Below are positions 28,107-38,828 of a stretch of DNA of 64,000 nucleotides, in pieces. How positions within the stretch are numbered: position 1 is the stretch's first letter; every line of letters starts with the position of its first letter. Source of the DNA: a bacterium (lineage in GTDB: Bacteria; RBG-13-61-14; DATKZS01); contig CAXXFL010000006.1 of NCBI GenBank assembly GCA_963674965.2, forward strand, positions 864,001 to 928,000, read 5' to 3'. The notes under the pieces are model-generated. The model made no database searches and was not told the origin of the DNA. It saw nothing but the letters and a program-made list of their open reading frames with translations. The position numbers were made by a program, and so were the translations under genes.

Positions 28107-31100
28107 CTAAAACTGGGCCACCATCTGGCCGTTGGCGTATACGTACAACTTGCGGCTGATCAGCCGGAAGTCGCTAAGTCGGAAGGTCTTCTCGCATAGC
28201 ATTCGACCGCCTGGATCGTAGAAGTAGACAGTCGCCTCCTCCTCGGTCACCTTCAGGAATTTGTTTCCACCGGCGGTGTAATAGATTTTGACCTTGCCGT
28301 CGTCGGCGTCAACCAGCCGGTCGAAAAGATCGAAGCCGTACTTGTGCGTGGGCGTCTGGATAACGTTTCCACGAGAGTCGTGTACGTAATCTCCGATGGT
28401 TGGACCGTCAGTGGATGTATCACCGGCCTCCACAGAGGAGAGACGATTGAGATTGTCGTAGTAGTAATGATAGGACTCTGATGATCCCGGGTCCCATGTC
28501 AAGTCCTTAGATTCTCGATTACCTCTACGATCAAAACCATAGGCAACGTGCAAAAATGGCTCTACTGTAGTATTTCCAGCAAAATAAGACACATCGGAAA
28601 GATGCTGTTCCTTGTCGTAAGAGGCGTTAATTTTTAAAGCGGGTGCGCCATAAGGACCGATTTTAGCATTAAGCGGATTTAGGTAATTGTCGAAATTCAA
28701 GAAGGTGCCGTTGAAATAATTATAGCCGTATTGTTCTCTCCAATATGCGTATGCACCCGCTGGATTTATCAACATAATATCATTTGCAACGTCACTCCTG
28801 TCGGGAGACTGGGCTAAAGTGCGAATGTCTATCTGTGTTATAACGCCAAGGCCGTACAACTGATAAATGTCAGTTACCACGTCGTTTCCATAGCTAAGTC
28901 GCTTCAACGAGCCGTCAGGCTGATACTCTATGGCATCCATTATGTCATCGGAGCCGCTCTTAGCTATCGAGACCACCCTGCCTAGAAGGTCGCGAGTAAG
29001 GGTAATGGTCATGTCGCCGTCATAGTCCGACGACGTTATCTCGCCGTATTCGTTATAATCGTATTTAATATCGAAGTCGGCGTAATTAACTCCCATGGAA
29101 GTGGGGATTGTATAATGTATTGAAACCTCGTCAAGAAGAGGGGCCGAGTTGTTGTAATCGTAATCAATATCGTAGGAAACCTGGTTCCAGTCTCCCTCCT
29201 CCTTGGTCAGGCTGCCCGATCCCGAGTGATAGGTAAACTTGTAAAGAGGCTGATTGACGCCAACGGCCTGGATTTGCGTCACCCGATCGGCTCGGTCATA
29301 AGTCATGTTAACCACCGCGTTGTCCGAGGCCCTGATCGACGTTATCCGGCCTCTAGAGTCGCGCGTGAACCTCCTCTGGCCGGACTCGGGACTGTATGTG
29401 CCGATAACGTTTCCCTTGGCGTCGTAAGTGAATTCACGGTCCCCAATGCCGGCCCCGCTCTCCTCGGATATGGAAAGAAGCTCGCCCTTTGAGCCATAGT
29501 TATATTTAAACTTGCGAGGAGTAGGCCCGCCGCTCACGATCGGACCCTCGCGTTCCGTCATGTATAGTTCTCCCGGACTCGGACCCTTATAGATTTCCTT
29601 ATAACTGGTGGCGTAGGTTTCATGCTTACAAAGATACGAGCCGGAAACGCAGTCCACTGTAATATCGACTTCCAAACCGGAACTACCCGCCGCTCCATAC
29701 TCGTACGTTACGTACCTGCCGAACTTGCCCGATTCTCCAGTCTGGTCCGTTGAAAAAGCCGGTCTGCCAAAGGCGTCGTGGGCGCTGATGGATAGCGCTC
29801 CAATTGGATAGCTGTTATCGTCAATGTTTTCCGAGGTCACGGGCGAAAAAATATTCCTGGGCGCGCCGCATAAATCGCGCTCAACAAATTGCGCGAGAGT
29901 GTAGCCGTCGTCCGTTTCAACCTCGGTTTTCCAAGTCCTCCCCCAACCGTCGAGGTATTCGGTTAGCTCGCGACCGCCCGTAACGCTCTTTCGTTGTTTG
30001 GCGTAATAAAAATGATTGAGGTTGCCTTGGGAAGGGCCGTCAGTTGTGCTCGTGCCGGCCAAATAAGTTATCTCCGTGTCCTCGATATCACCGGGACGGA
30101 TAATGGACTTGAGACGACCAACGTTGTCATAAACGTATTGATATGAGAGCTCGTCGCCGCCGGCGTTAGGCACCGTTATTTGGGTCGCCTGTCCTAAAGC
30201 GTTATACGTCAAATCACCCGTCAAAGCTTCATCATAAAGCTTCACGGTCTGGGGGCGACCATTAACATAATCCTCGTACGCGTTTTTTACCGAGTCGTCG
30301 CCCGTGGCGTTGGTTACGTTTCCACCTGAGTCGTACTCCAGGCTTAGAGCGCTCATGTCAACCACTGAGGCCTGGAGGAGGCCATTAGTCATGTCCGTTC
30401 TGTACGTTCCAAGGTTGCCCGCGCCGCCGTTCAGGCTGGAGTCCGCGTTAGTCGTCACGCCGATCATGTAGGTGTCCCCGCTTACCTGGGCCTCGTGACT
30501 GAACTTGTAATTGCTCGTCCTCGAATAGCCCCCTCCTCCATCCATATATGACAAGACTTTCCCGGGGGAGTTATATATATTGAAATCGCTCGCCTCCATG
30601 TGATAGGTAACGCCGTCGCGAATAATTTGCACGCTGGAAATGGCCGGAATCGTGGGAGTCGGATCGATAAAATGTCGAGATAAGCCGCCAACGTCCCTGT
30701 CATAATAGACGTGGTAAGGAGTTGAAGAGCTCGAATTGTCGGATATCAACCGGATGCCATGCAAAAAGGGAGAGGGCAGACCAATCCAATTATATTCCAC
30801 GTCACTCAATGAAAAACTATCGCCACCGTCTCGAACGCCAAAAGTCTTTAATGCTTTAAGAAGATGCACGCGCCAAATCGAGCCGTTCTCGTTTATAGAG
30901 GGAGTGTCATAGTAATAATATTCCTTTTTCACGGAATGGAAGTGATTTTTTATATCCGTTTCGCCAGGCACGTAATCGGCGAAACATCGCAATATATGAG
31001 GATCATCGCCGTCCATCAGCTTGTCGATTTCTATCGTGGTCTTCAAGGTGCCCGCCTGATCTCCCGTGCCAACCCTCTTCATCGCGCTGAAAGCGTCAAA

Positions 31101-32681
31101 CCTGGCCCTTGCATAGGTCTCTGTCCCGGTTCTTATATAATTGGTTTCATATCGTTGATACGCGGAATTCCAGATTTCTATAGTGGGAAAATAACTGTTC
31201 CCATATAAAATCTGCGGATCATATTCAACCACGGTGTAGCTATAGGATACGTCGGCGCTCCATGGGGAGACAATTCGCTTCACGTCGCCTATATAACAAC
31301 TAATAACCACATCGCCTCCCAAGCATTGTTCATCAGAAAAACAGTATTCAATTTGCCGGTCTCCACAATATGAGACGCAATCGCAATATCCATTATCTCC
31401 AACTCCATAGAACGTGGCGGGCTCGAAATGCCAATGATCAGAAACTATATCGGGATCAAGATCGGTTGGAATACTGTTGCCGAATTCAACGACGGCCGCC
31501 TGGTCCAAAACGAAAGTGTCCACTAGTTGATAGTCGCTGGGGCCAACGTGGTGCAACGGGACATCGTTATCATAAAGAGGAGTATAAAATGATTCAGGCA
31601 CCACGTGGTAAATATAATAACGGCTGTAAAGAAGCGTTTCGTTTTGGCTGACCTCAAGCCTTTTAAGCTTTCCCGCCGGCCGGTTGGTCTTACGACACAC
31701 CAGGGTGTTTCCGTTCATGCATTCTATATTATTATATTGCGATATCTGGCTTGACACGTCCTCGTATTTGAAGTCGACTTTATAAATGGTATTGCCCGCT
31801 CCCTCGAGAGTCACTTTTTCAGGCATATTATAGAAACCGTAAATCGCCTCTTTATCCTCCTCAAGGTAATCTATGGTAACTTTAGAACCGTTTGGATAGT
31901 CGACCTCAACAAGCTTTAGCCTTACAGGTTCCCACGGCGGTGGAATATGACCCGACGTAAGCTTGTACGTCTTCTTGGTTCCATCAGGAAGGAAAAGGCG
32001 GGCTTCCGTTTGTATAAAAGGCGTAGACCACCCTTCAGCTTTTGCGATATTTTTAGAGATAGCCTCAATCCTCCAGTTATTGTCCGAAAAGTACAATTCT
32101 TGCCTGGCTTGTACCGTGCTTCCCGCCGGATATGGGTAATTATCTTGAGGAGTGACAATTTCCCAGTAATCCCCCCGCCAAGCGCATCCCGTGCCCTCGC
32201 AGGCGTTGAAATGATAAAGCTCGCCGCCCTGGGTTAATAAATATGCGTGCAAAATATCTCTAATGTATTCAGGACGCGTCTCGAAATCATAAAAACTACT
32301 GTAATGGAAAACAATGCGTTCGTTCATCACTTCCCAATTTAGACCATAAGGGGTTGCGGACTCCCGCCCAAGGAGAGTATACATGAAATCATCGGTCGCG
32401 GTGGGATCGGATCTACGTATAATGGAAAAACCATATCCCCCATCCGATCCGATAGTCACATCCGCAAATGCAAGGTGGGGAATTCCGGTCATAGTGTCAA
32501 TGTATTCGAAACTGGAAGGACGGTAATATTCCCTATATGGCGACATGAATTCCAACGTTCTTCGATAGTCATACTCGATTGGATTCAAAGTACCTTCCGC
32601 CATTACCTTCGCGCTTGGAATAACAACTACCGCCAGCGCCGCCATCAAGATTACCTTTACACTTGCATACTTCAATTTCAT
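28107..32681 (-). CDS. Secreted YD/RHS-repeat shell protein lacking the Rhs core
   Basis: GGAGGT RBS, Sec-type signal MKLKYASV...VMA; YD repeats (YDSGGNV, YNALGQ, YDNVGRL, YDAKGNV, YDRADRV, YDNLNRL); ends YVYANGQMVAQF. Confidence 0.85.
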   Translation of the reverse strand: MKLKYASVKVILMAALAVVVIPSAKVMAEGTLNPIEYDYRRTLEFMSPYREYYRPSSFEYIDTMTGIPHLAFADVTIGSDGGYGFSIIRRSDPTATDDFMYTLLGRESATPYGLNWEVMNERIVFHYSSFYDFETRPEYIRDILHAYLLTQGGELYHFNACEGTGCAWRGDYWEIVTPQDNYPYPAGSTVQARQELYFSDNNWRIEAISKNIAKAEGWSTPFIQTEARLFLPDGTKKTYKLTSGHIPPPWEPVRLKLVEVDYPNGSKVTIDYLEEDKEAIYGFYNMPEKVTLEGAGNTIYKVDFKYEDVSSQISQYNNIECMNGNTLVCRKTNRPAGKLKRLEVSQNETLLYSRYYIYHVVPESFYTPLYDNDVPLHHVGPSDYQLVDTFVLDQAAVVEFGNSIPTDLDPDIVSDHWHFEPATFYGVGDNGYCDCVSYCGDRQIEYCFSDEQCLGGDVVISCYIGDVKRIVSPWSADVSYSYTVVEYDPQILYGNSYFPTIEIWNSAYQRYETNYIRTGTETYARARFDAFSAMKRVGTGDQAGTLKTTIEIDKLMDGDDPHILRCFADYVPGETDIKNHFHSVKKEYYYYDTPSINENGSIWRVHLLKALKTFGVRDGGDSFSLSDVEYNWIGLPSPFLHGIRLISDNSSSSTPYHVYYDRDVGGLSRHFIDPTPTIPAISSVQIIRDGVTYHMEASDFNIYNSPGKVLSYMDGGGGYSRTSNYKFSHEAQVSGDTYMIGVTTNADSSLNGGAGNLGTYRTDMTNGLLQASVVDMSALSLEYDSGGNVTNATGDDSVKNAYEDYVNGRPQTVKLYDEALTGDLTYNALGQATQITVPNAGGDELSYQYVYDNVGRLKSIIRPGDIEDTEITYLAGTSTTDGPSQGNLNHFYYAKQRKSVTGGRELTEYLDGWGRTWKTEVETDDGYTLAQFVERDLCGAPRNIFSPVTSENIDDNSYPIGALSISAHDAFGRPAFSTDQTGESGKFGRYVTYEYGAAGSSGLEVDITVDCVSGSYLCKHETYATSYKEIYKGPSPGELYMTEREGPIVSGGPTPRKFKYNYGSKGELLSISEESGAGIGDREFTYDAKGNVIGTYSPESGQRRFTRDSRGRITSIRASDNAVVNMTYDRADRVTQIQAVGVNQPLYKFTYHSGSGSLTKEEGDWNQVSYDIDYDYNNSAPLLDEVSIHYTIPTSMGVNYADFDIKYDYNEYGEITSSDYDGDMTITLTRDLLGRVVSIAKSGSDDIMDAIEYQPDGSLKRLSYGNDVVTDIYQLYGLGVITQIDIRTLAQSPDRSDVANDIMLINPAGAYAYWREQYGYNYFNGTFLNFDNYLNPLNAKIGPYGAPALKINASYDKEQHLSDVSYFAGNTTVEPFLHVAYGFDRRGNRESKDLTWDPGSSESYHYYYDNLNRLSSVEAGDTSTDGPTIGDYVHDSRGNVIQTPTHKYGFDLFDRLVDADDGKVKIYYTAGGNKFLKVTEEEATVYFYDPGGRMLCEKTFRLSDFRLISRKLYVYANGQMVAQF

Positions 32682-33268
32682 ACCTCCCAGATATGCGCTT
32701 AAAACTGATCCCTGGCCTTCACGACACGAAAAGGCGCAGGGAGAACAAGCAAAGCTTTCCCCTTCGGTCAAAATAGCCGGGATAAATAAATTGGATTTTC
32801 GATCTCCGCTCATGCCCCAAATTACAAGCCTCGCGTCCGAAGACTCTCCCCAAGAGTCAAGACTGGACTTTAACCGCCGTAAATGAACTGGACGGCTCTT
32901 TTCCGTTCCTTATTATTAATGGTGAGCATTCAGGAGGGCTTGTGTCGGTCTTGGTGCTGTTGTTCCCCCCACGCACTTATAACTTATATTTATATAACTT
33001 GATCGCGAATCGTAGCAAAATGTTGTAATCAAGTCAAGATAGAATATTTGAAAAGATTGTGCCAACCTAAATTGTGTTACCAATACAGATAGTTATAATT
33101 TATTAGAAACCCCTGGTCTGCGCCTTCAAGAGCAATGTCTTGATAAGATACTGTCACTGCTGTTTGAATGTATAAGTGCCCTGTTCAAGGTAATGCGAGC
33201 CTCCCCGCGGTTAAAATGGAGTATCAGGCTTTTTAAGGCCGTCACCCAAACCAGACAAGGAGGCTTGC

Positions 33269-34294
33269 ATGAAAGATTATCATTATGTTGGGTTGGATGT
33301 CCACAAGAAGAGCATTGCTTTTTGTGTGAAGGAGGCGGACGGTCGGATCGTTGAGGAGGGCGAGATCGGGGCTACCCGTCGGGAGTTGGCGGCGTGGGCC
33401 GAGGGTCGAGATCGGGCGTGGAACGGGGCCATGGAGGCGACGATGTTCACGGGTTGGATCTACGATTTTCTTTTGCCTTACGCTGAGGACCTCAAGGTGG
33501 GTCACTCGTACATGTTGCGGGCGATTTGCGCGTCGAAGAAGAAGAACGACCGGGTTGACGCTCGCAAACTGGCCGACACCCTTCGCTGCGACTGGTTTCC
33601 CGAGTGCCACATGGCGCCGCCGGAGATTCGCGAGCTGCGCCGGGTCTTGCGCTACCGCAACTTGCTGGTTCGGGAGGCGGCCAAGCTCAAGACCAAGACG
33701 GCGGGACTGTTGATGGAGGTCGGGGCCGAATACGACAAGAATCGGCTCCATGGCGAGCGCTATTTCGAGGCCCTGCTCGGGAGTTTGGAAGACGTGCCGG
33801 ACTCGGTAGTTGAGTTGCTCGAGTTGACCCATTCGGGGATGAGGATTTTCGAGACGAATCAGAAACGGCTGGTTAACGCCTTGGTCGAACACCCGGTCCT
33901 GGCCGAGAGGGTAAAGCGGTTGATGACGATCCCCGGGGTTGGACAAGTAACCGCTCTGACCTGGGCGCTCGAAATCGGCGACCCGCATCGCTTCACTTCC
34001 GTGAAAAAAGCGCAGAGCTATTGCGGCCTGTGCAGCGCCCAAAACGAATCGGCGGGCAAGAGCAAACGCGGTCCGTTGTCCAAGCAGCGCAACAAACATC
34101 TTCAAACCATGCTGGTCGAGGCGGCCAAGCTCGCGCCTCGATATAACTCCCAGTTAGCGGAGGTTCACGAAAAAGCCCGGGCCGGAGGCGCTAACCGCAA
34201 CCGCGCCACTCTGGCCGTGGCCCGCAAACTGGTGGCGTACTTGTTGTGCGTGGATAAAACCGTGAGGCCCTTTGTGATGGCCGACGAAAATTAA
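33269..34294 (+). CDS. IS110-family recombinase (DEDD RuvC + Tnp domain)
   Basis: GLDVHK, MEAT, KNDRVDA, IPGVG, YCGL...ESAG. Confidence 0.95.
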   Translation: MKDYHYVGLDVHKKSIAFCVKEADGRIVEEGEIGATRRELAAWAEGRDRAWNGAMEATMFTGWIYDFLLPYAEDLKVGHSYMLRAICASKKKNDRVDARKLADTLRCDWFPECHMAPPEIRELRRVLRYRNLLVREAAKLKTKTAGLLMEVGAEYDKNRLHGERYFEALLGSLEDVPDSVVELLELTHSGMRIFETNQKRLVNALVEHPVLAERVKRLMTIPGVGQVTALTWALEIGDPHRFTSVKKAQSYCGLCSAQNESAGKSKRGPLSKQRNKHLQTMLVEAAKLAPRYNSQLAEVHEKARAGGANRNRATLAVARKLVAYLLCVDKTVRPFVMADEN

Positions 34295-34296
34295 TC

Positions 34297-34496
34297 TCCG
34301 ATCGCGCGCCACCCGCCGGTCCTCGCCGATTTTGGACTGGGCGACCCCGCTTCGGCGGGAGATGCTCCCTTACTGCTGTTTCGAGGCCGGCGGGATGATC
34401 CAAACTCAATCTTCGGCGATGGCCCAGGCCTGATGCCGCAAATGGATGTCTGGTCGCCCTCGGGGTCGGCCAAGGTCAAGAGGCGCGGCGATCGAA
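34297..34496 (+). ncRNA. Putative bridge/seek RNA of the IS110 element
   Basis: Closing stem 34299-34310/34482-34494 and stem 34312-34325/34382-34394; four 8-9 nt segments match the target and donor junctions. Confidence 0.8.
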
Positions 34497-35547
34497 AAGA
34501 AAATGAGTTTATCGCTTTGAGGGCCTACGGCCGGGACGAAGAAAAAAGGGCGAAGCAAATCCGCCCCGCCCGGCCGTCTGGACACCCGCGTCGGCGCTCA
34601 GGTTGCTCTCCAGCGGAGCCCTATCCTCCGCGCGGGCAAAAAGGATGATAGCATGAGTTGATCAGCGGATAAATCGTCGATGAACGGGGAGCCTCCCACT
34701 CCCCTTGACAAACACTTATCATGGAGGTCGCCCTCGGGGTCGGCCAAGGTCAAGAGGCGCGGCGATCGAAAAGAAAATGAGTTTATCGCTTTGAGGGCCT
34801 ACGGCCGGGACGAAGAAAAAAGGGCGAAGCAAATCCGCCCCGCCCGGCCGTCTGGACACCCGCGTCGGCGCTCAGGTTGCTCTCCAGCGGAGCCCTATCC
34901 TCCGCGCGGGCAAAAAGGATGATAGCATGAGTTGATCAGCGGATAAATCGTCGATGAACGGGGAGCCTCCCACTCCCCTTGACAAACACTTATCATGGAG
35001 GTCGCCCTCGGGGTCGGCCAAGGTCAAGAGGCGCGGCGATCGAAAAGAAAATGAGTTTATCGCTTTGAGGGCCTACGGCCGGGACGAAGAAAAAAGGGCG
35101 AAGCAAATCCGCCCCGCCCGGCCGTCTGGACACCCGCGTCGGCGCTCAGGTTGCTCTCCAGCGGAGCCCTATCCTCCGCGCGGGCAAAAAGGATGATAGC
35201 ATGAGTTGATCAGCGGATAAATCGTCGATGAACGGGGAGCCTCCCACTCCCCTTGACAAACACTTATCATGGAGGTCGCCCTCGGGGTCGGCCAAGGTCA
35301 AGAGGCGCGGCGATCGAAAAGAAAATGAGTTTATCGCTTTGAGGGCCTACGGCCGGGACGAAGAAAAAAGGGCGAAGCAAATCCGCCCCGCCCGGCCGTC
35401 TGGACACCCGCGTCGGCGCTCAGGTTGCTCTCCAGCGGAGCCCTATCCTCCGCGCGGGCAAAAAGGATGATAGCATGAGTTGATCAGCGGATAAATCGTC
35501 GATGAACGGGGAGCCTCCCACTCCCCTTGACAAACACTTATCATGGA
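34452..35547 (+). repeat. Four tandem, apparently identical 274-bp copies of the IS110 right end
   Basis: Units start GGTCGCCCTCGG at 34452, 34726, 35000 and 35274, and end TTGACAAACACTTATCATGGA. Confidence 0.95.
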
Positions 35548-35630
35548 TGTCCAAAATAGGACGGACCTTGCCTTTGCCCCATTATAAAACGGGGATTTAG
35601 ATGGTCAAGCTATGGGTTTTCAGGTTGAGG

Positions 35631-36251
35631 TTATCCCTTTTTGTCCCGCCGGGGCTGTCCAAGACCGCTGATGGGAAGATATAGTTGCTGGGGTTTGGGC
35701 ACGATAGGCTCCACGCCGAAGGGATTTTGCAGCCATTCCGTCAAATCCCGATAAGTAAAGAGGTTCAGCCGCGGCATGGAGGCCAGGTTCGAGAACGACC
35801 AGCCGGCCATGGATATGTAATGGAGCCACTTCAAAATAAGGATGGCGATTAAGGCTGTCCAAATCCGGATGAGCAGCGCGTTCTCGCTCGTGCCCACGAA
35901 GGACTTGATTTTGAGGTTTTGTTTCAGGGCCTTGAAGAATATCTCGATCTCCCACCGGTCCTTGTAAAGCGCGGCGGGCCGGTTTTTGTTGGCGTAGGCG
36001 AGGGGCGACTTGTTGGGGTCCTTTTTGACGCCGAGGTGGACGAGCTTGCCCATGCAGCACTTGAGTCCGTTGCAGATTTCACGCAGGGAGTCGGCCCTCG
36101 CGAGTTGGCAGAACATCATGGCCACGAACTGGTCCCAGCAGGTGAAGCCCTTGGCCTTGTACTCGGCGTTGTTTTTCCTGACCAGGGCCGCGAACTCGGA
36201 GCGGGGAAAATGTTTCAATACTTGACTGAACAGGCTGGATACGCGTACCAT
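35631..36251 (-). pseudogene. IS4 (DUF4372) transposase with in-frame internal deletion
   Basis: DUF4372 N-terminus (CWDQFVAMMFCQL..SLREI) joined directly to LYKDRWEIEIFFK; most of the DDE core is absent (206 aa). Confidence 0.88.
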
Positions 36252-36325
36252 AGTTTAGTCCTCCTTGTTGCCATGGATTTTTGTGTAATAAAAGTATCCC
36301 ACGGCATGGAGGACTTTTCATTTAA

Positions 36326-37668
36326 GGATCAACGTATTTAAGTATGGGTATATTTAGCATGGAAAGCGCCCCTTATCTTTAGGAAGAAGTATTCCATGTC
36401 CCTGAAGCCGAAGGCAATGCGCTTTATCACCTTGATCTTGTTGTTCACTCCCTCGATGAGGCTGGTGTGAATAGGATAACGGCAATGAGAGATGAGACCG
36501 GGCATGTGATCCTTGAGCTTCTTGGCGAATTTCTTCAAAGCGTCGATCCGCGATCTCATCGCTCGATGATACCAGTTCATCAGCCACTTGCGCGACCAAG
36601 CCTCGCTTTTATACCTCCAGATCTGCTTGAGGTCGTCCTTAAGAACATAGACTTTGAAAAGCTTGCGGTTAAGCCGGAGGAGATCGGCCAACCGAACGTG
36701 CTCGCCCCTTTCCACGTCAAGGTTCGAGGCGTTTTTAAGAAGCAGGTAGCGGCTGCCCTTGATGGCTTCCTTGCGTTCGCCTCGGGCCATCCTGAATTCC
36801 TGGACCCGGACCTTGTCCACCACCTCGCGTCCGTAAGCCGAAATGACGTGGAAGGGATCGTAAACTATCGCGGCGTTAGGGCAATGCTCGCGAGTGGCCT
36901 CCTCATAAGGCTTCCACATGTCCATGGCCACCGCCTCGATCTTCTCGCACTTTTCCGGCCCCAGGGCCTCGTAAAAAAAGGACAGGCTCTCCTTGGTCCG
37001 GTCCAGGCCGATGTAGGGGATTTCACCGCTCTTGAAGTCGATCACGGCCGTGGCGTAGCGATGGCGGCGGCGGATGGAAAACTCGTCCACGCCGATGACG
37101 GTGGGAGAAGCCTCGGACGGATCGGGCACTCGCTCATCCAGCGCGGCCTTGTCTATGGCCTTGACCGTCTTCTCGTGGAGGCCGTACTGCTCGGCAACGG
37201 CCTTAAGGCTACGAATCTCCTCGCAGGCCAAAGCCACCTCGGCGGCAAGACGTTTCGAGTACTCGACCCGGGGAAGCGTCCACTCGAGGCTCTCGGTGAC
37301 CACTCCGCAGTCGGGGCAATCAACGCGGACCTGATAGAAAAAAAGGTAACTCCGCTTGAAGACGCCGTAGGAAAGATCACGGACGCAACGTTCGTCGCAG
37401 TCGTAATACGCGCTGAACTCCCTGCCGCATCTGCACTTGTAAACGTTGCGATCGCGCGAAAGCTCGATCATCAGGCTGGGGAATTCATCTCCCTCCCAAG
37501 TATGAGTGCTGACCCGATGAACGGAAAAACCTGGAATGTTGACCATAATATCGATATAATCCTTTTTGACCGCCATCTCGTCCTCCTTGTTTTGGTGCTT
37601 TTTGCTAAAACTACTCTGACAAAGAGAACGGGGGCGGTCAATTCACCCACACTAAATTACGTAGAACC
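36326..37668 (-). mobile_element. ISL3-family element
   Basis: IRs GGATCAACGTATTTAAGTATGGGT and revcomp GGTTCTACGTAATTTAGTGTGGGT; 8-bp TSD TCATTTAA (36318-36325, 37669-37676). Confidence 0.92.
36338..37576 (-). CDS. ISL3-family transposase
   Basis: Zn finger, IGVDEFS, AMDMWKPY, YDPFHV, IEGVNNKIKVIKRIAFGFR. Confidence 0.95.
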   Translation of the reverse strand: MAVKKDYIDIMVNIPGFSVHRVSTHTWEGDEFPSLMIELSRDRNVYKCRCGREFSAYYDCDERCVRDLSYGVFKRSYLFFYQVRVDCPDCGVVTESLEWTLPRVEYSKRLAAEVALACEEIRSLKAVAEQYGLHEKTVKAIDKAALDERVPDPSEASPTVIGVDEFSIRRRHRYATAVIDFKSGEIPYIGLDRTKESLSFFYEALGPEKCEKIEAVAMDMWKPYEEATREHCPNAAIVYDPFHVISAYGREVVDKVRVQEFRMARGERKEAIKGSRYLLLKNASNLDVERGEHVRLADLLRLNRKLFKVYVLKDDLKQIWRYKSEAWSRKWLMNWYHRAMRSRIDALKKFAKKLKDHMPGLISHCRYPIHTSLIEGVNNKIKVIKRIAFGFRDMEYFFLKIRGAFHAKYTHT

Positions 37669-37889
37669 TCATTTAAAAGCTATCTTGGACAAGAGTGAGA
37701 TACTGTATTATTTTTTCTTTCTTCTCTGGAAAAATATTTATTATTGGGTCATATAATGCCGCTAAAATCAAGAAATGTTATAGACAAAATGAGTCACATG
37801 CGTCCGCCTTTTTGCAATGCTCGATAAATTCCGTTAACTCAGATATCACTTGTCCTCTTACTCTTGCCAAGCCCTCAAAAGTCATCATG

Positions 37890-38828
37890 CTATTTCGCAA
37901 AGGGCACGGATAAACGCTCCGCCAGTTCCAATGCATCCGCGGGCCAGAACCTCTCGGTCCGAGGATGGCGCACATTCCGCCGTCCAAACGCGGGGCGGCA
38001 TTCGAGCAGGGACTCGACCCATTGGGTGGGGAGCGAGTTCCGGCCATGCACCGCGCCCAACAGCGCGCCACAGATGGCGGCGTTGGTGTCGGTATCTCCG
38101 CCTCGCATAACGGTGTCAACGACGGCTTCCTCCAGGTTCGGGGCGTGCGGAAGCTGCCACAGGGCGTTTCCGAATGCCGTCAGTACCCACCCCTGTTGGT
38201 GGACATAGTCGGCGGGCGGCGCGTCGGCCGCTCTTCGGACAGCATCAAGGAGACTTTCATCCACCTCCATGCCTTCCGACCAGGTCACGATCTGCTCATA
38301 CAGATTTCGGCCATCGCACCCCGAGTGGATGGCATGGGCAATCGCCATCGTGAACAATGCGTTGGCTTGCTGGCAAACCGGATGGGGATGGGTGATCGCG
38401 GCATCCTGTCGCGCCCACTCGGCCACATGCTTCAAATCATGGTTGGCTCCGAAGATGCCGAGCGGACTGATCCGCATCATCGCGCCGTTGGCCTGGCTGT
38501 CCGGATTGGGACGACCCCGCAGACCACCGGCGACGGTCATGCCACAATCGAACGGCCCGGAGTCCAGCCAGAAGATGTACGCTTTCCTGGCTTCAGCGGG
38601 ATCGTACTTTCCCCGCTCGGAAAGCATGCGGGCCAGGGAGAGGGCCATCTCGGAATCATCGGTCGGTTGTCCGGCAATCGTGTCCCAGGCGCCTCCGTCG
38701 GCAAGCTCCCTCACTCCGTCGGGGTATTCCCGTCGGATGTCCTCCGGAGTTCGAAACTCGACCAGGCCGCCCAGCGCGTCTCCGGCAAGCTGTCCAAGGA
38801 GACAGCCTTGGGCGCGTTCAACTTGCAT
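37890..38828 (-). CDS. ADP-ribosylglycohydrolase (DraG/ARH family)
   Basis: GQLAGDALG, QPTDDSEM, ANGAMMR, THPHP, GGDTDTNAAICGAL. Confidence 0.92.
   Translation of the reverse strand: MQVERAQGCLLGQLAGDALGGLVEFRTPEDIRREYPDGVRELADGGAWDTIAGQPTDDSEMALSLARMLSERGKYDPAEARKAYIFWLDSGPFDCGMTVAGGLRGRPNPDSQANGAMMRISPLGIFGANHDLKHVAEWARQDAAITHPHPVCQQANALFTMAIAHAIHSGCDGRNLYEQIVTWSEGMEVDESLLDAVRRAADAPPADYVHQQGWVLTAFGNALWQLPHAPNLEEAVVDTVMRGGDTDTNAAICGALLGAVHGRNSLPTQWVESLLECRPAFGRRNVRHPRTERFWPADALELAERLSVPFAK

Follow-up and report, generated by a model that had tools for sequence, protein, structure and literature searches.

A 64-kb stretch of contig CAXXFL010000006.1, referred to here as the window, contains an IS110-family, IS1111-type insertion sequence (33164..35550, plus strand; 2,387 bp) that lies inside the terminal repeat of an IS4-family remnant and whose 3' non-coding region very probably encodes a bridge (seek) RNA matched to that repeat. 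This reading is supported by the anatomy of the element, by empty sites in the same genome, by a covarying RNA scaffold and by the covariation of guides and flanks among homologues. We regard the element as a new, clean case of the known bridge/seek RNA mechanism, which it leaves unchanged. All coordinates are positions in the window, and the strands of guides and flanks are named relative to its top strand. The positions given in the initial annotation of this DNA were all correct when the letters were read again.

The limits of the element were set by empty sites. The element interrupts CACTGCTGT|CCAAAATAGG, and the intact sequence CACTGCTGT|CCAAAATAGGACGG makes up the tip of the IS4-family remnant in four further copies within this genome (C2:206393, C2:624352, C6:1182365 and C7:25400 (minus strand)). 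Excision of 33164-35550 in silico yields CACTGCTGTCCAAAATAGG; the four intact empty sites thus agree with the initial proposal that removal of the IS110 element restores an IS4 terminal repeat. A GT dinucleotide adjoins the element at both junctions, CACTGCT-GT|TTGAATGTATAAG on the left and ATCATGGAT-GT|CCAAAATAGG on the right, and occurs once in each of the four empty sites, so that the target is not duplicated and the short core GT is common to the target and both junctions. The left target half and the GT core (33162-63) are the 9 outermost base pairs of the terminal repeat of the IS4-family remnant (CACTGCTGT; 33155..33163, plus strand), which are continuous with CCAAAATAGG in the four other copies and match the left target guide described below. 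Inside the element, the left subterminal inverted repeat ATAAGTGCCCTGTTCAAGG (33172..33190, plus strand) pairs imperfectly with CCTTGACAAACACTTAT (35525-35541), the similarity consisting of ATG(T)ATAAGTG versus CACTTATCAT, plus TGTTCAAGG versus CCTTGACA. The right end (35525..35550, plus strand) comprises the subterminal repeat followed by ATCATGGAT and the GT core. Both ends are kept in homologues, the left as TTGAATG[T/C]ATAAG and the right as CTTATCATGGAT+GT, the latter being followed by the complement of each element's own right target guide. The terminal extensions, counted by eye, are 6 bp (GT included) and 4 bp. The non-coding regions measure 105 bp 5' of the transposase gene and 1,256 bp 3' of it, the latter including a four-copy tandem array; with a single array unit the 3' region would be 434 bp and the whole element 1,565 bp. 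The 6.5-Mb assembly holds one copy of the element.

Two segments of the 3' region correspond to the two halves of the target, as the initial annotation had claimed, and the letters confirm both. First, the right target guide ATTTTGGAC (34329..34337, plus strand) is the reverse complement of GTCCAAAAT (35549-35557), and is therefore complementary at 9/9 positions to the top-strand GT+CCAAAAT; the match extends to 11/12 positions over 34326-37 versus 35549-60. Second, the left target guide ACTGCTGT (34372..34379, plus strand) is identical at 8/8 positions to the top strand at 33156-33163, and hence complementary to the bottom strand. Within the 64-kb window, the 9-mer of the right guide occurs at two places only, the guide and the flank, and the 8-mer of the left guide is found three times, namely in the guide, in the flank and at one unrelated position. 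By our own arithmetic, the chance of finding both matches on the correct strands in one RNA of ~150 nt is ~1e-6.

The same correspondence was found in homologues. A scan guided by the protein, with one genome taken per species, yielded 80 loci, ~45 of which are copies in one Bryobacterales metagenome-assembled genome (MAG). For the comparison of guides with flanks, the ends of the homologues were located by motifs that are independent of the guides, and 6 left and 7 right positions were compared with the core left out; 33 Bryobacterales copies with the same guide were kept apart from this test. Across the remaining 26 distinct elements, guide and flank agreed at 267/338 positions, whereas when the pairing was permuted 10,000 times the agreement averaged 169 and never exceeded 203. 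The match was 13/13 in four elements, including the one in the window, and 11 or more in twelve. Variability in this otherwise conserved RNA peaks in the slots aligned with 34329-37 and 34372-79, and each of these tracks its own flank. Covariation of the guides with the flanks, which the initial annotation had named as a check on its reading, is therefore present well above the permutation maximum. It is very improbable that the target is instead chosen by the protein alone or by the DNA structure of the IS4 repeat, with the RNA complementarity being coincidental or a by-product, since the covariation over the 26 elements lies far beyond the permutations, since the guide slots fall in the loops of a covarying scaffold, and since relatives have been reprogrammed experimentally, according to excerpts of two published studies (PMC11187229, PMC11208160).

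The scaffold itself was delineated by comparative analysis. A conserved block 3' of the stop codon is present in 63/80 loci, and the bridge/seek RNA gene would extend from 34311 to 34461 (plus strand), a block that is conserved in 28 homologues. For an alignment of 29 distinct versions of the RNA, RNAalifold predicted 34 base pairs, of which 24 show compensatory change. The proportion of cells able to pair on the predicted structure was 95.8%, compared with 81.8% in column shuffles (0/500 reached the observed value), and it fell to 28-44% when the 3' partner was moved by 1-3 columns. The outer stem (helix 1), formed by a 5' arm at 34313..34325 (plus strand) and a 3' arm at 34382-34393, closes the target-binding loop and changes on both sides at 12/12 pairs. 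All pairs of both inner hairpins covary likewise; in the inner hairpin of the donor-binding loop (34414..34438, plus strand; helices 6 and 7), 7/7 pairs change on both sides, and homologues carry big insertions at the tip. Meanwhile, two predicted helices that would join the guide segments to each other show no covariation, and because the pairs there never covary we took these segments as loop and not as stem. The covarying outer stem and the non-covarying guide helices together indicate that the target guides occupy the two sides of an internal loop closed by a long stem, in line with the arrangement originally proposed. A search of Rfam with 32800-38000 returned zero families at E up to 1.

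Two further guides correspond to the element's own ends. The left-donor guide ATGGATGT (34442..34449, plus strand) is identical at 8/8 positions to the right end and core at 35543-35550, as first annotated, and covaries with the right end in homologues: where this guide reads ATAGATGT, the right end is ATAGAT in 3/4 elements (L030, L088 and L105; not L040). The right-donor guide region (34398..34411, plus strand) contains two overlapping registers that both match the core and the left end, ATCCAAAC (34398-405) and ACTCAATC (34404-411). The first of these had been proposed as the guide, and its 7/8 match to the reverse complement of GTTTGAAT (33162-33169) holds, but the register is not unique. 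Counted over 23 elements, Watson-Crick matches to the core and left end number 121/184 for 34398-405 and 132/184 for 34404-411, with other offsets reaching at most 78, and the variable base of the second register changes along with the left end in L049 and L105.

Together, these features are consistent with an autonomous element and with the following course of insertion. In the target-binding loop, the guide at 34372-79 would pair with the bottom strand of ACTGCT+GT and the guide at 34329-37 with the top strand of GT+CCAAAAT, so that both target guides would jointly specify the 15-bp site ACTGCTGTCCAAAAT. The second loop would hold the element's own joined ends by means of the left-donor guide at 34442-49 and the right-donor guide at ~34398-34411. 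The DEDD/serine recombinase would then exchange strands at the common GT, so that the element would enter the IS4 terminal repeat 9 bp from its outer edge and split it with no duplication of the target.

The recombinase is encoded by an intact transposase gene of 341 aa (33269..34294, plus strand) that is preceded by a Shine-Dalgarno-like AAGGAGG and keeps all residues that are invariant among 22 aligned homologues. The protein matches PF01548 (DEDD_Tnp_IS110; E 2.6e-15), PF02371 (Transposase_20; E 8e-22) and the NCBIfam model NF033542 'IS110 family RNA-guided transposase' (192.4 bits versus a cut-off of 140), which bears out the IS110-family identity given by the initial annotation. Its best cellular homologues are 58-72% identical, and 2,406 plasmid records, with one exception, match it below 60%. 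The transposase of IS4321 from plasmid R751 is 24% identical over 293 aa (E 1e-12), and phmmer against the solved IS621 and ISCro4 proteins (8wt6, 9t56) gave E values of 5e-8 and 9e-9. The C-terminal motif, GLCSAQNESAG (GLCS....SAG), is kept across the clade, the published IS1111 motif being GL-P----S(t)G. Judged from these sequences, the clade appears distant from the studied IS110/IS1111 members, and we have filed the element as IS1111-type by architecture, not by phylogeny.

The architecture agrees with the published type in its 3' RNA, its 341-aa protein, the presence of subterminal repeats, imperfect though these are, and its guide order, as the initial assignment to IS110/IS1111 had implied. 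In excerpts of the published descriptions, IS1111-type elements have a DEDD transposase of 330-350 aa, a long 3' non-coding region and subterminal inverted repeats (PMC11187229, PMC11208160). These repeats are usually 11-13 bp long and near-perfect with terminal extensions of 7 and 3 bp, or 6 and 3, and in the seekRNA the segment matching the top strand precedes, in the 5'-to-3' direction, the one matching the bottom strand (excerpts of PMC11187229). Bridge/seek RNAs have been predicted in 93% of the catalogued IS1111-type members (excerpts of PMC11208160). As far as the same excerpts describe them, ISEc11, ISPa11 and ISKpn4 resemble the window element in protein size, 3' RNA, the presence of subterminal repeats and the absence of a target duplication (PMC11187229, PMC11208160), and the IS1111-type seekRNA shares with the window RNA the guide order (34329-37 before 34372-79) and the overlap of the guides at the crossover (PMC11187229). 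The window element differs from the type described there in the distance of its clade, in its GLCS....SAG motif, in extensions of 6/4 and not 7/3, and in its 4-copy 3' array. IS621 and ISCro4 belong to the same protein family and follow the same logic of two loops for target and donor guides that share a core, but their RNA lies in the left end, upstream of the gene; in the window element the RNA lies 3' of the gene, its target guides come in the reverse order, and GT serves as the core.

Targeting of the terminal repeats of other mobile elements by IS110-family members is already published and is not new. For IS4321 and IS5075 the reported targets are terminal repeats of Tn21-family transposons, and for IS1383 the inverted repeats of IS1384. 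Like the window element, they are IS110-family insertions at a fixed position within the terminal repeat of another mobile element; in each case the host repeats are landing places that recur and do no harm, and the end of the host is split by the insertion. The window element differs in its host, an IS4-family remnant, and in its 15-bp target.

Several points weigh against the reading of the 3' region as a programmed bridge RNA, or limit it. In the guide/flank test, 5 of the 26 rows read one or two bases out of register, because of which 267/338 is an undercount, and five loci without a recognisable end were skipped. In the 33 Bryobacterales copies kept apart from the test, the flanks fit the guide near the core (CT+GT in 32-33/33 and CCCC in 28-32/33), but at the four distal left-guide positions just 3-12/33 copies agree with the flank; the effective target there is therefore short, ~CTGT|CCCC, and the guide is thus not always used over its full length. 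The right-donor guide is ambiguous, with the second register fitting the family slightly better. A single-sequence fold of 34305-34475 gave no signal (z-score -0.05), a test that is uninformative for this G+C-rich RNA. Expression of the RNA, protein binding, a circular intermediate and strand exchange are proposed here by analogy with the published mechanism of relatives. Finally, the element is a single copy beside five free perfect targets, and its current activity is therefore doubtful or low.

These free targets are five further exact occurrences of ACTGCTGTCCAAAAT in the genome (C1:267329, C2:206394, C2:624353, C6:1182366 and C7:25399), all located at the same kind of IS4-family end and all unoccupied; the remnant's other end departs from the 15-bp target at three positions. 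A metagenome contig of 1,576 nt from another study covers 33155-34712 at 97.6% identity, with no differences in the guides. It starts with CACTGCTGT, runs to ...ATCATGGATGTCC, ends in GT CC and has one 3' unit, and would represent the same insertion sequence in the same target, as far as the 9+2 flanking bases show. Near-identical copies were not found in 60 related genomes, and an exact 20-nt scan of metagenome contigs returned 6 places, all of them unrelated chance matches. In runs X1 and X2, contigs show the joint 33472>34377 and carry 4 differences in 42 nt. The description of the element as an RNA-guided parasite of IS4 ends draws on this insertion and on the contig from the other study, which is also the one other copy seen in such an end; the five perfect targets in the genome are free, and neither the 60 genomes nor the exact contig scan added a further case. 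Since homologues mostly target ...CTGT|CCCC..., often within short repeats, the IS4 end is the specificity of the window element and not that of the clade. Many of the Bryobacterales insertions (flanks of L050, L055, L061, L074, L076, L089 and L092) lie in a recurring ...AAAGTAGTAGCCTGT|CCCC(C/G)ACTTT..., which looks like a dispersed palindromic repeat used as target.

The low occupancy raises the question of whether the element is a relic, whose RNA guided one past insertion and which is now immobile in this host through its enlarged 3' end, weak expression or host factors. We consider this unlikely, though a possibility to be taken seriously. Besides the one copy beside five free perfect targets, the bridge RNA and the right end are separated by the 1.1-kb array, and the element sits among nested, decayed elements. 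However, the open reading frame (ORF) is intact with all clade-invariant residues kept, and no damage is seen in either end, in the subterminal repeats or in any guide. Furthermore, in the Bryobacterales relative, array-bearing copies are found at different places, L045 and L066 having the same 4-unit array and L051, L083 and L121 the same 3-unit array, which suggests that arrays do not stop movement.

The array in the window takes up 1,100 of the 2,387 bases of the element. As delimited by Tandem Repeats Finder (TRF), it spans 34452..35551 (plus strand) and consists of 4.0 copies of a 274-bp unit that are 99% alike, beginning three bases past the left-donor guide and ending, in the last unit, in the true right end. 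Its internal junctions read ATCATGGAG|GT|CGCCC, that is, the right end with one changed base, joined at GT to the CTG-GT-CGCCC located immediately 3' of the guide. Two runs of a single sample, which is probably the source sample, gave unitig depths of 84.2/21.2 and 61.8/17.2 for the array unit and the unique part of the element; the four-copy array is therefore real, the unit being 4.0x and 3.6x as deep as the unique part. With one unit, the guide would lie 285 nt from the right end, inside the range of 132-292 seen in homologues. The array contains repeated 80-aa ORFs, and the one tested (34680-34922) had no Pfam match.

Arrays are also present in the Bryobacterales relative, where copies L045, L066, L090, L051, L083, L071, L065, L077 and L121 carry units of 142, 330 or 614 bp in 2 to ~10 copies, the 142-bp arrays being those that reach ~10. 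Their junctions always consist of the exact right end and GT followed by an internal GTC site, of which three different ones are used. Among the in-element arrays with a period of at least 60 in the 80 loci, 8/10 end exactly at the right end, and the whole 6.5-Mb genome of the window has 16 TRF rows with a period of at least 100, among which the window array is the most uniform (99%). The arrays are therefore tied to the element, given that the junctions recur at the right end, that most of the arrays end there and that long-period arrays are few in the genome.

The arrays may have arisen in one of two ways. We tentatively propose, at somewhat below an even chance, that the recombinase of this clade repeatedly recombines its own right end with internal core-like GT(C) sites and thereby builds head-to-tail 3' arrays, which would be footprints either of sub-circle formation and re-integration or of sister-copy exchange at pseudo-sites. 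A nearly even chance falls to ordinary slippage during replication, or to unequal crossing-over between short repeats, in which the recombinase is uninvolved and the position of the arrays reflects coincidence or tolerance. The latter would fit the 142-bp arrays, which join two 9-nt direct repeats ATGGATGTC (one in the left-donor guide, the other in the right end and flank), and the 330- and 614-bp types, which have a TGTC microhomology in common; an increase from 2 to 4 copies requires homologous recombination only, and the junction in the window array is one base (G for T) off a clean exchange at GT. It accounts less readily for the four independent junction types, three in the relative and one here, in which the left partner is always the exact right-end/core boundary and the right partner a GTC site, nor for the frequent ending of the arrays at the right end and the scarcity of long-period arrays in the genome noted above.

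Exchange between the true right end and secondary sites by the recombinase has a precedent in ISPpu9 of Pseudomonas putida KT2440. According to excerpts of its description (PMC12288879), this IS110-family element has extra end-like boxes 3' of the transposase gene and forms transposase-dependent circles from alternative end pairs, with the crossover at a common dinucleotide. The extra module of ISPpu9 is described there as a distinct small RNA gene with its own boxes that also occurs solo (PMC12288879), whereas the module in the window is the element's own 3' segment repeated head-to-tail. Solo 3' units were not found in the Bryobacterales MAG, in which 7 extra places (40/70 candidates scored) were all full-length elements, and the duplicated 3' units of L121 and L124 are attached to a full-length element. 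Among the matches listed for literature on IS1111 with tandem repeats or minicircles, right-end arrays were not described, and the word 'tandem' is absent from the seekRNA paper (PMC11187229). The right-end arrays are the sole feature of this element that could hold something new. If they are made by the recombinase, bridge recombination would have a natural off-target reaction directed at the element itself, through which 3' modules could be acquired, lost or multiplied in IS1111-type elements.

Two further rearrangements were observed in the Bryobacterales copies. In L124 (= L069), ~1.6 kb unlike the insertion sequence lies between element positions 941 and 922 in one 614-bp unit, with the pieces overlapping by 20 positions; this stretch may be an insertion of another element. 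In L074 (4120-4256), a 66-bp duplication in the target-binding loop yields a bridge RNA gene with a doubled loop, the duplication joining the DNA of the left target guide to the sequence before the right target guide at a common CTGTT.

The IS4-family host of the element is itself a composite. Its 9-bp target-site duplication AGATACTGT is found at 33146..33154 (left copy) and, as an identical 9-mer, at 37698-37706, outside both inverted repeats. The 18-bp terminal repeats, CACTGCTGTCCAAAATAG, which is split by the element, and 37680-37697, match at 15/18 positions; the partner repeat and the duplication are thus where they had first been reported. The body of the remnant (35551..37697, minus strand; ~0.8 kb without the ISL3 element described below) comprises the right half of the target, CCAAAAT (35551-57), together with an ORF for a truncated transposase (35631-36251) and the second terminal repeat. 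This minus-strand ORF encodes 206 aa and is internally deleted, retaining DUF4372 and the final ~70 positions of the DDE_Tnp_1 profile; among NCBIfam models it fits NF033592 'IS4 family transposase' best, at 88 bits, which is below the cut-off of 115. A full-length transposase of this IS4 kind was not found in the genome. An uninterrupted, 98% identical copy of the remnant is located at C2:206402-207198, and from it we read the boundaries of an ISL3-family element nested in the remnant (36326..37668, minus strand; PF01610; NF033550, 294 bits). The ISL3 element is flanked by the 8-bp duplication TCATTTAA (36318-25 and 37669-76), carries its transposase gene at 36338-37576 on the minus strand, and has three other full-length, ~100% identical copies plus fragments in the genome. 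A facing pair of IS4-like terminal repeats ~44 bp apart, each 1-2 bases from the 15-bp target, is present at C3:5409-5452 of the same genome, and may be a minimal repeat pair or a collapsed miniature inverted-repeat transposable element. The pile of insertion sequences is bounded by a 1,568-aa ORF (28107-32813, minus strand) and an ADP-ribosylglycohydrolase gene (PF03747; 37890-38828, minus strand).

With regard to transcription, a scan of the linear element for promoter-like sites on the plus strand was negative over 33100-35620. The IS4 end contains a strong promoter-like site on the minus strand (35581-35608; TTGACC-16-TATAAT), which points into the IS1111-type element, and each 274-bp unit contains a minus-strand terminator-like hairpin followed by a T-run (34547-34571 and equivalents); the array may shield the element from inward antisense transcription.

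The element provides a legible natural case of this mechanism in a little-studied environmental clade, in which the sequence by itself shows the 15-bp target, the empty sites, the guides and the covariation across 26 elements. For this clade, these data establish where the guide slots lie, that GT is the core and what scaffold the RNA has, and so supply what one would need to know before trying the enzyme as a programmable recombinase. The insertion also adds a case of one insertion sequence that uses the terminal repeat of another as a harmless, recurrent landing site and so disables that end. If the right-end arrays were made by the recombinase, they would bring to light a side reaction, directed at the element itself, at minimal GT(C) sites, which bears both on off-target activity and on the evolution of 3' modules.

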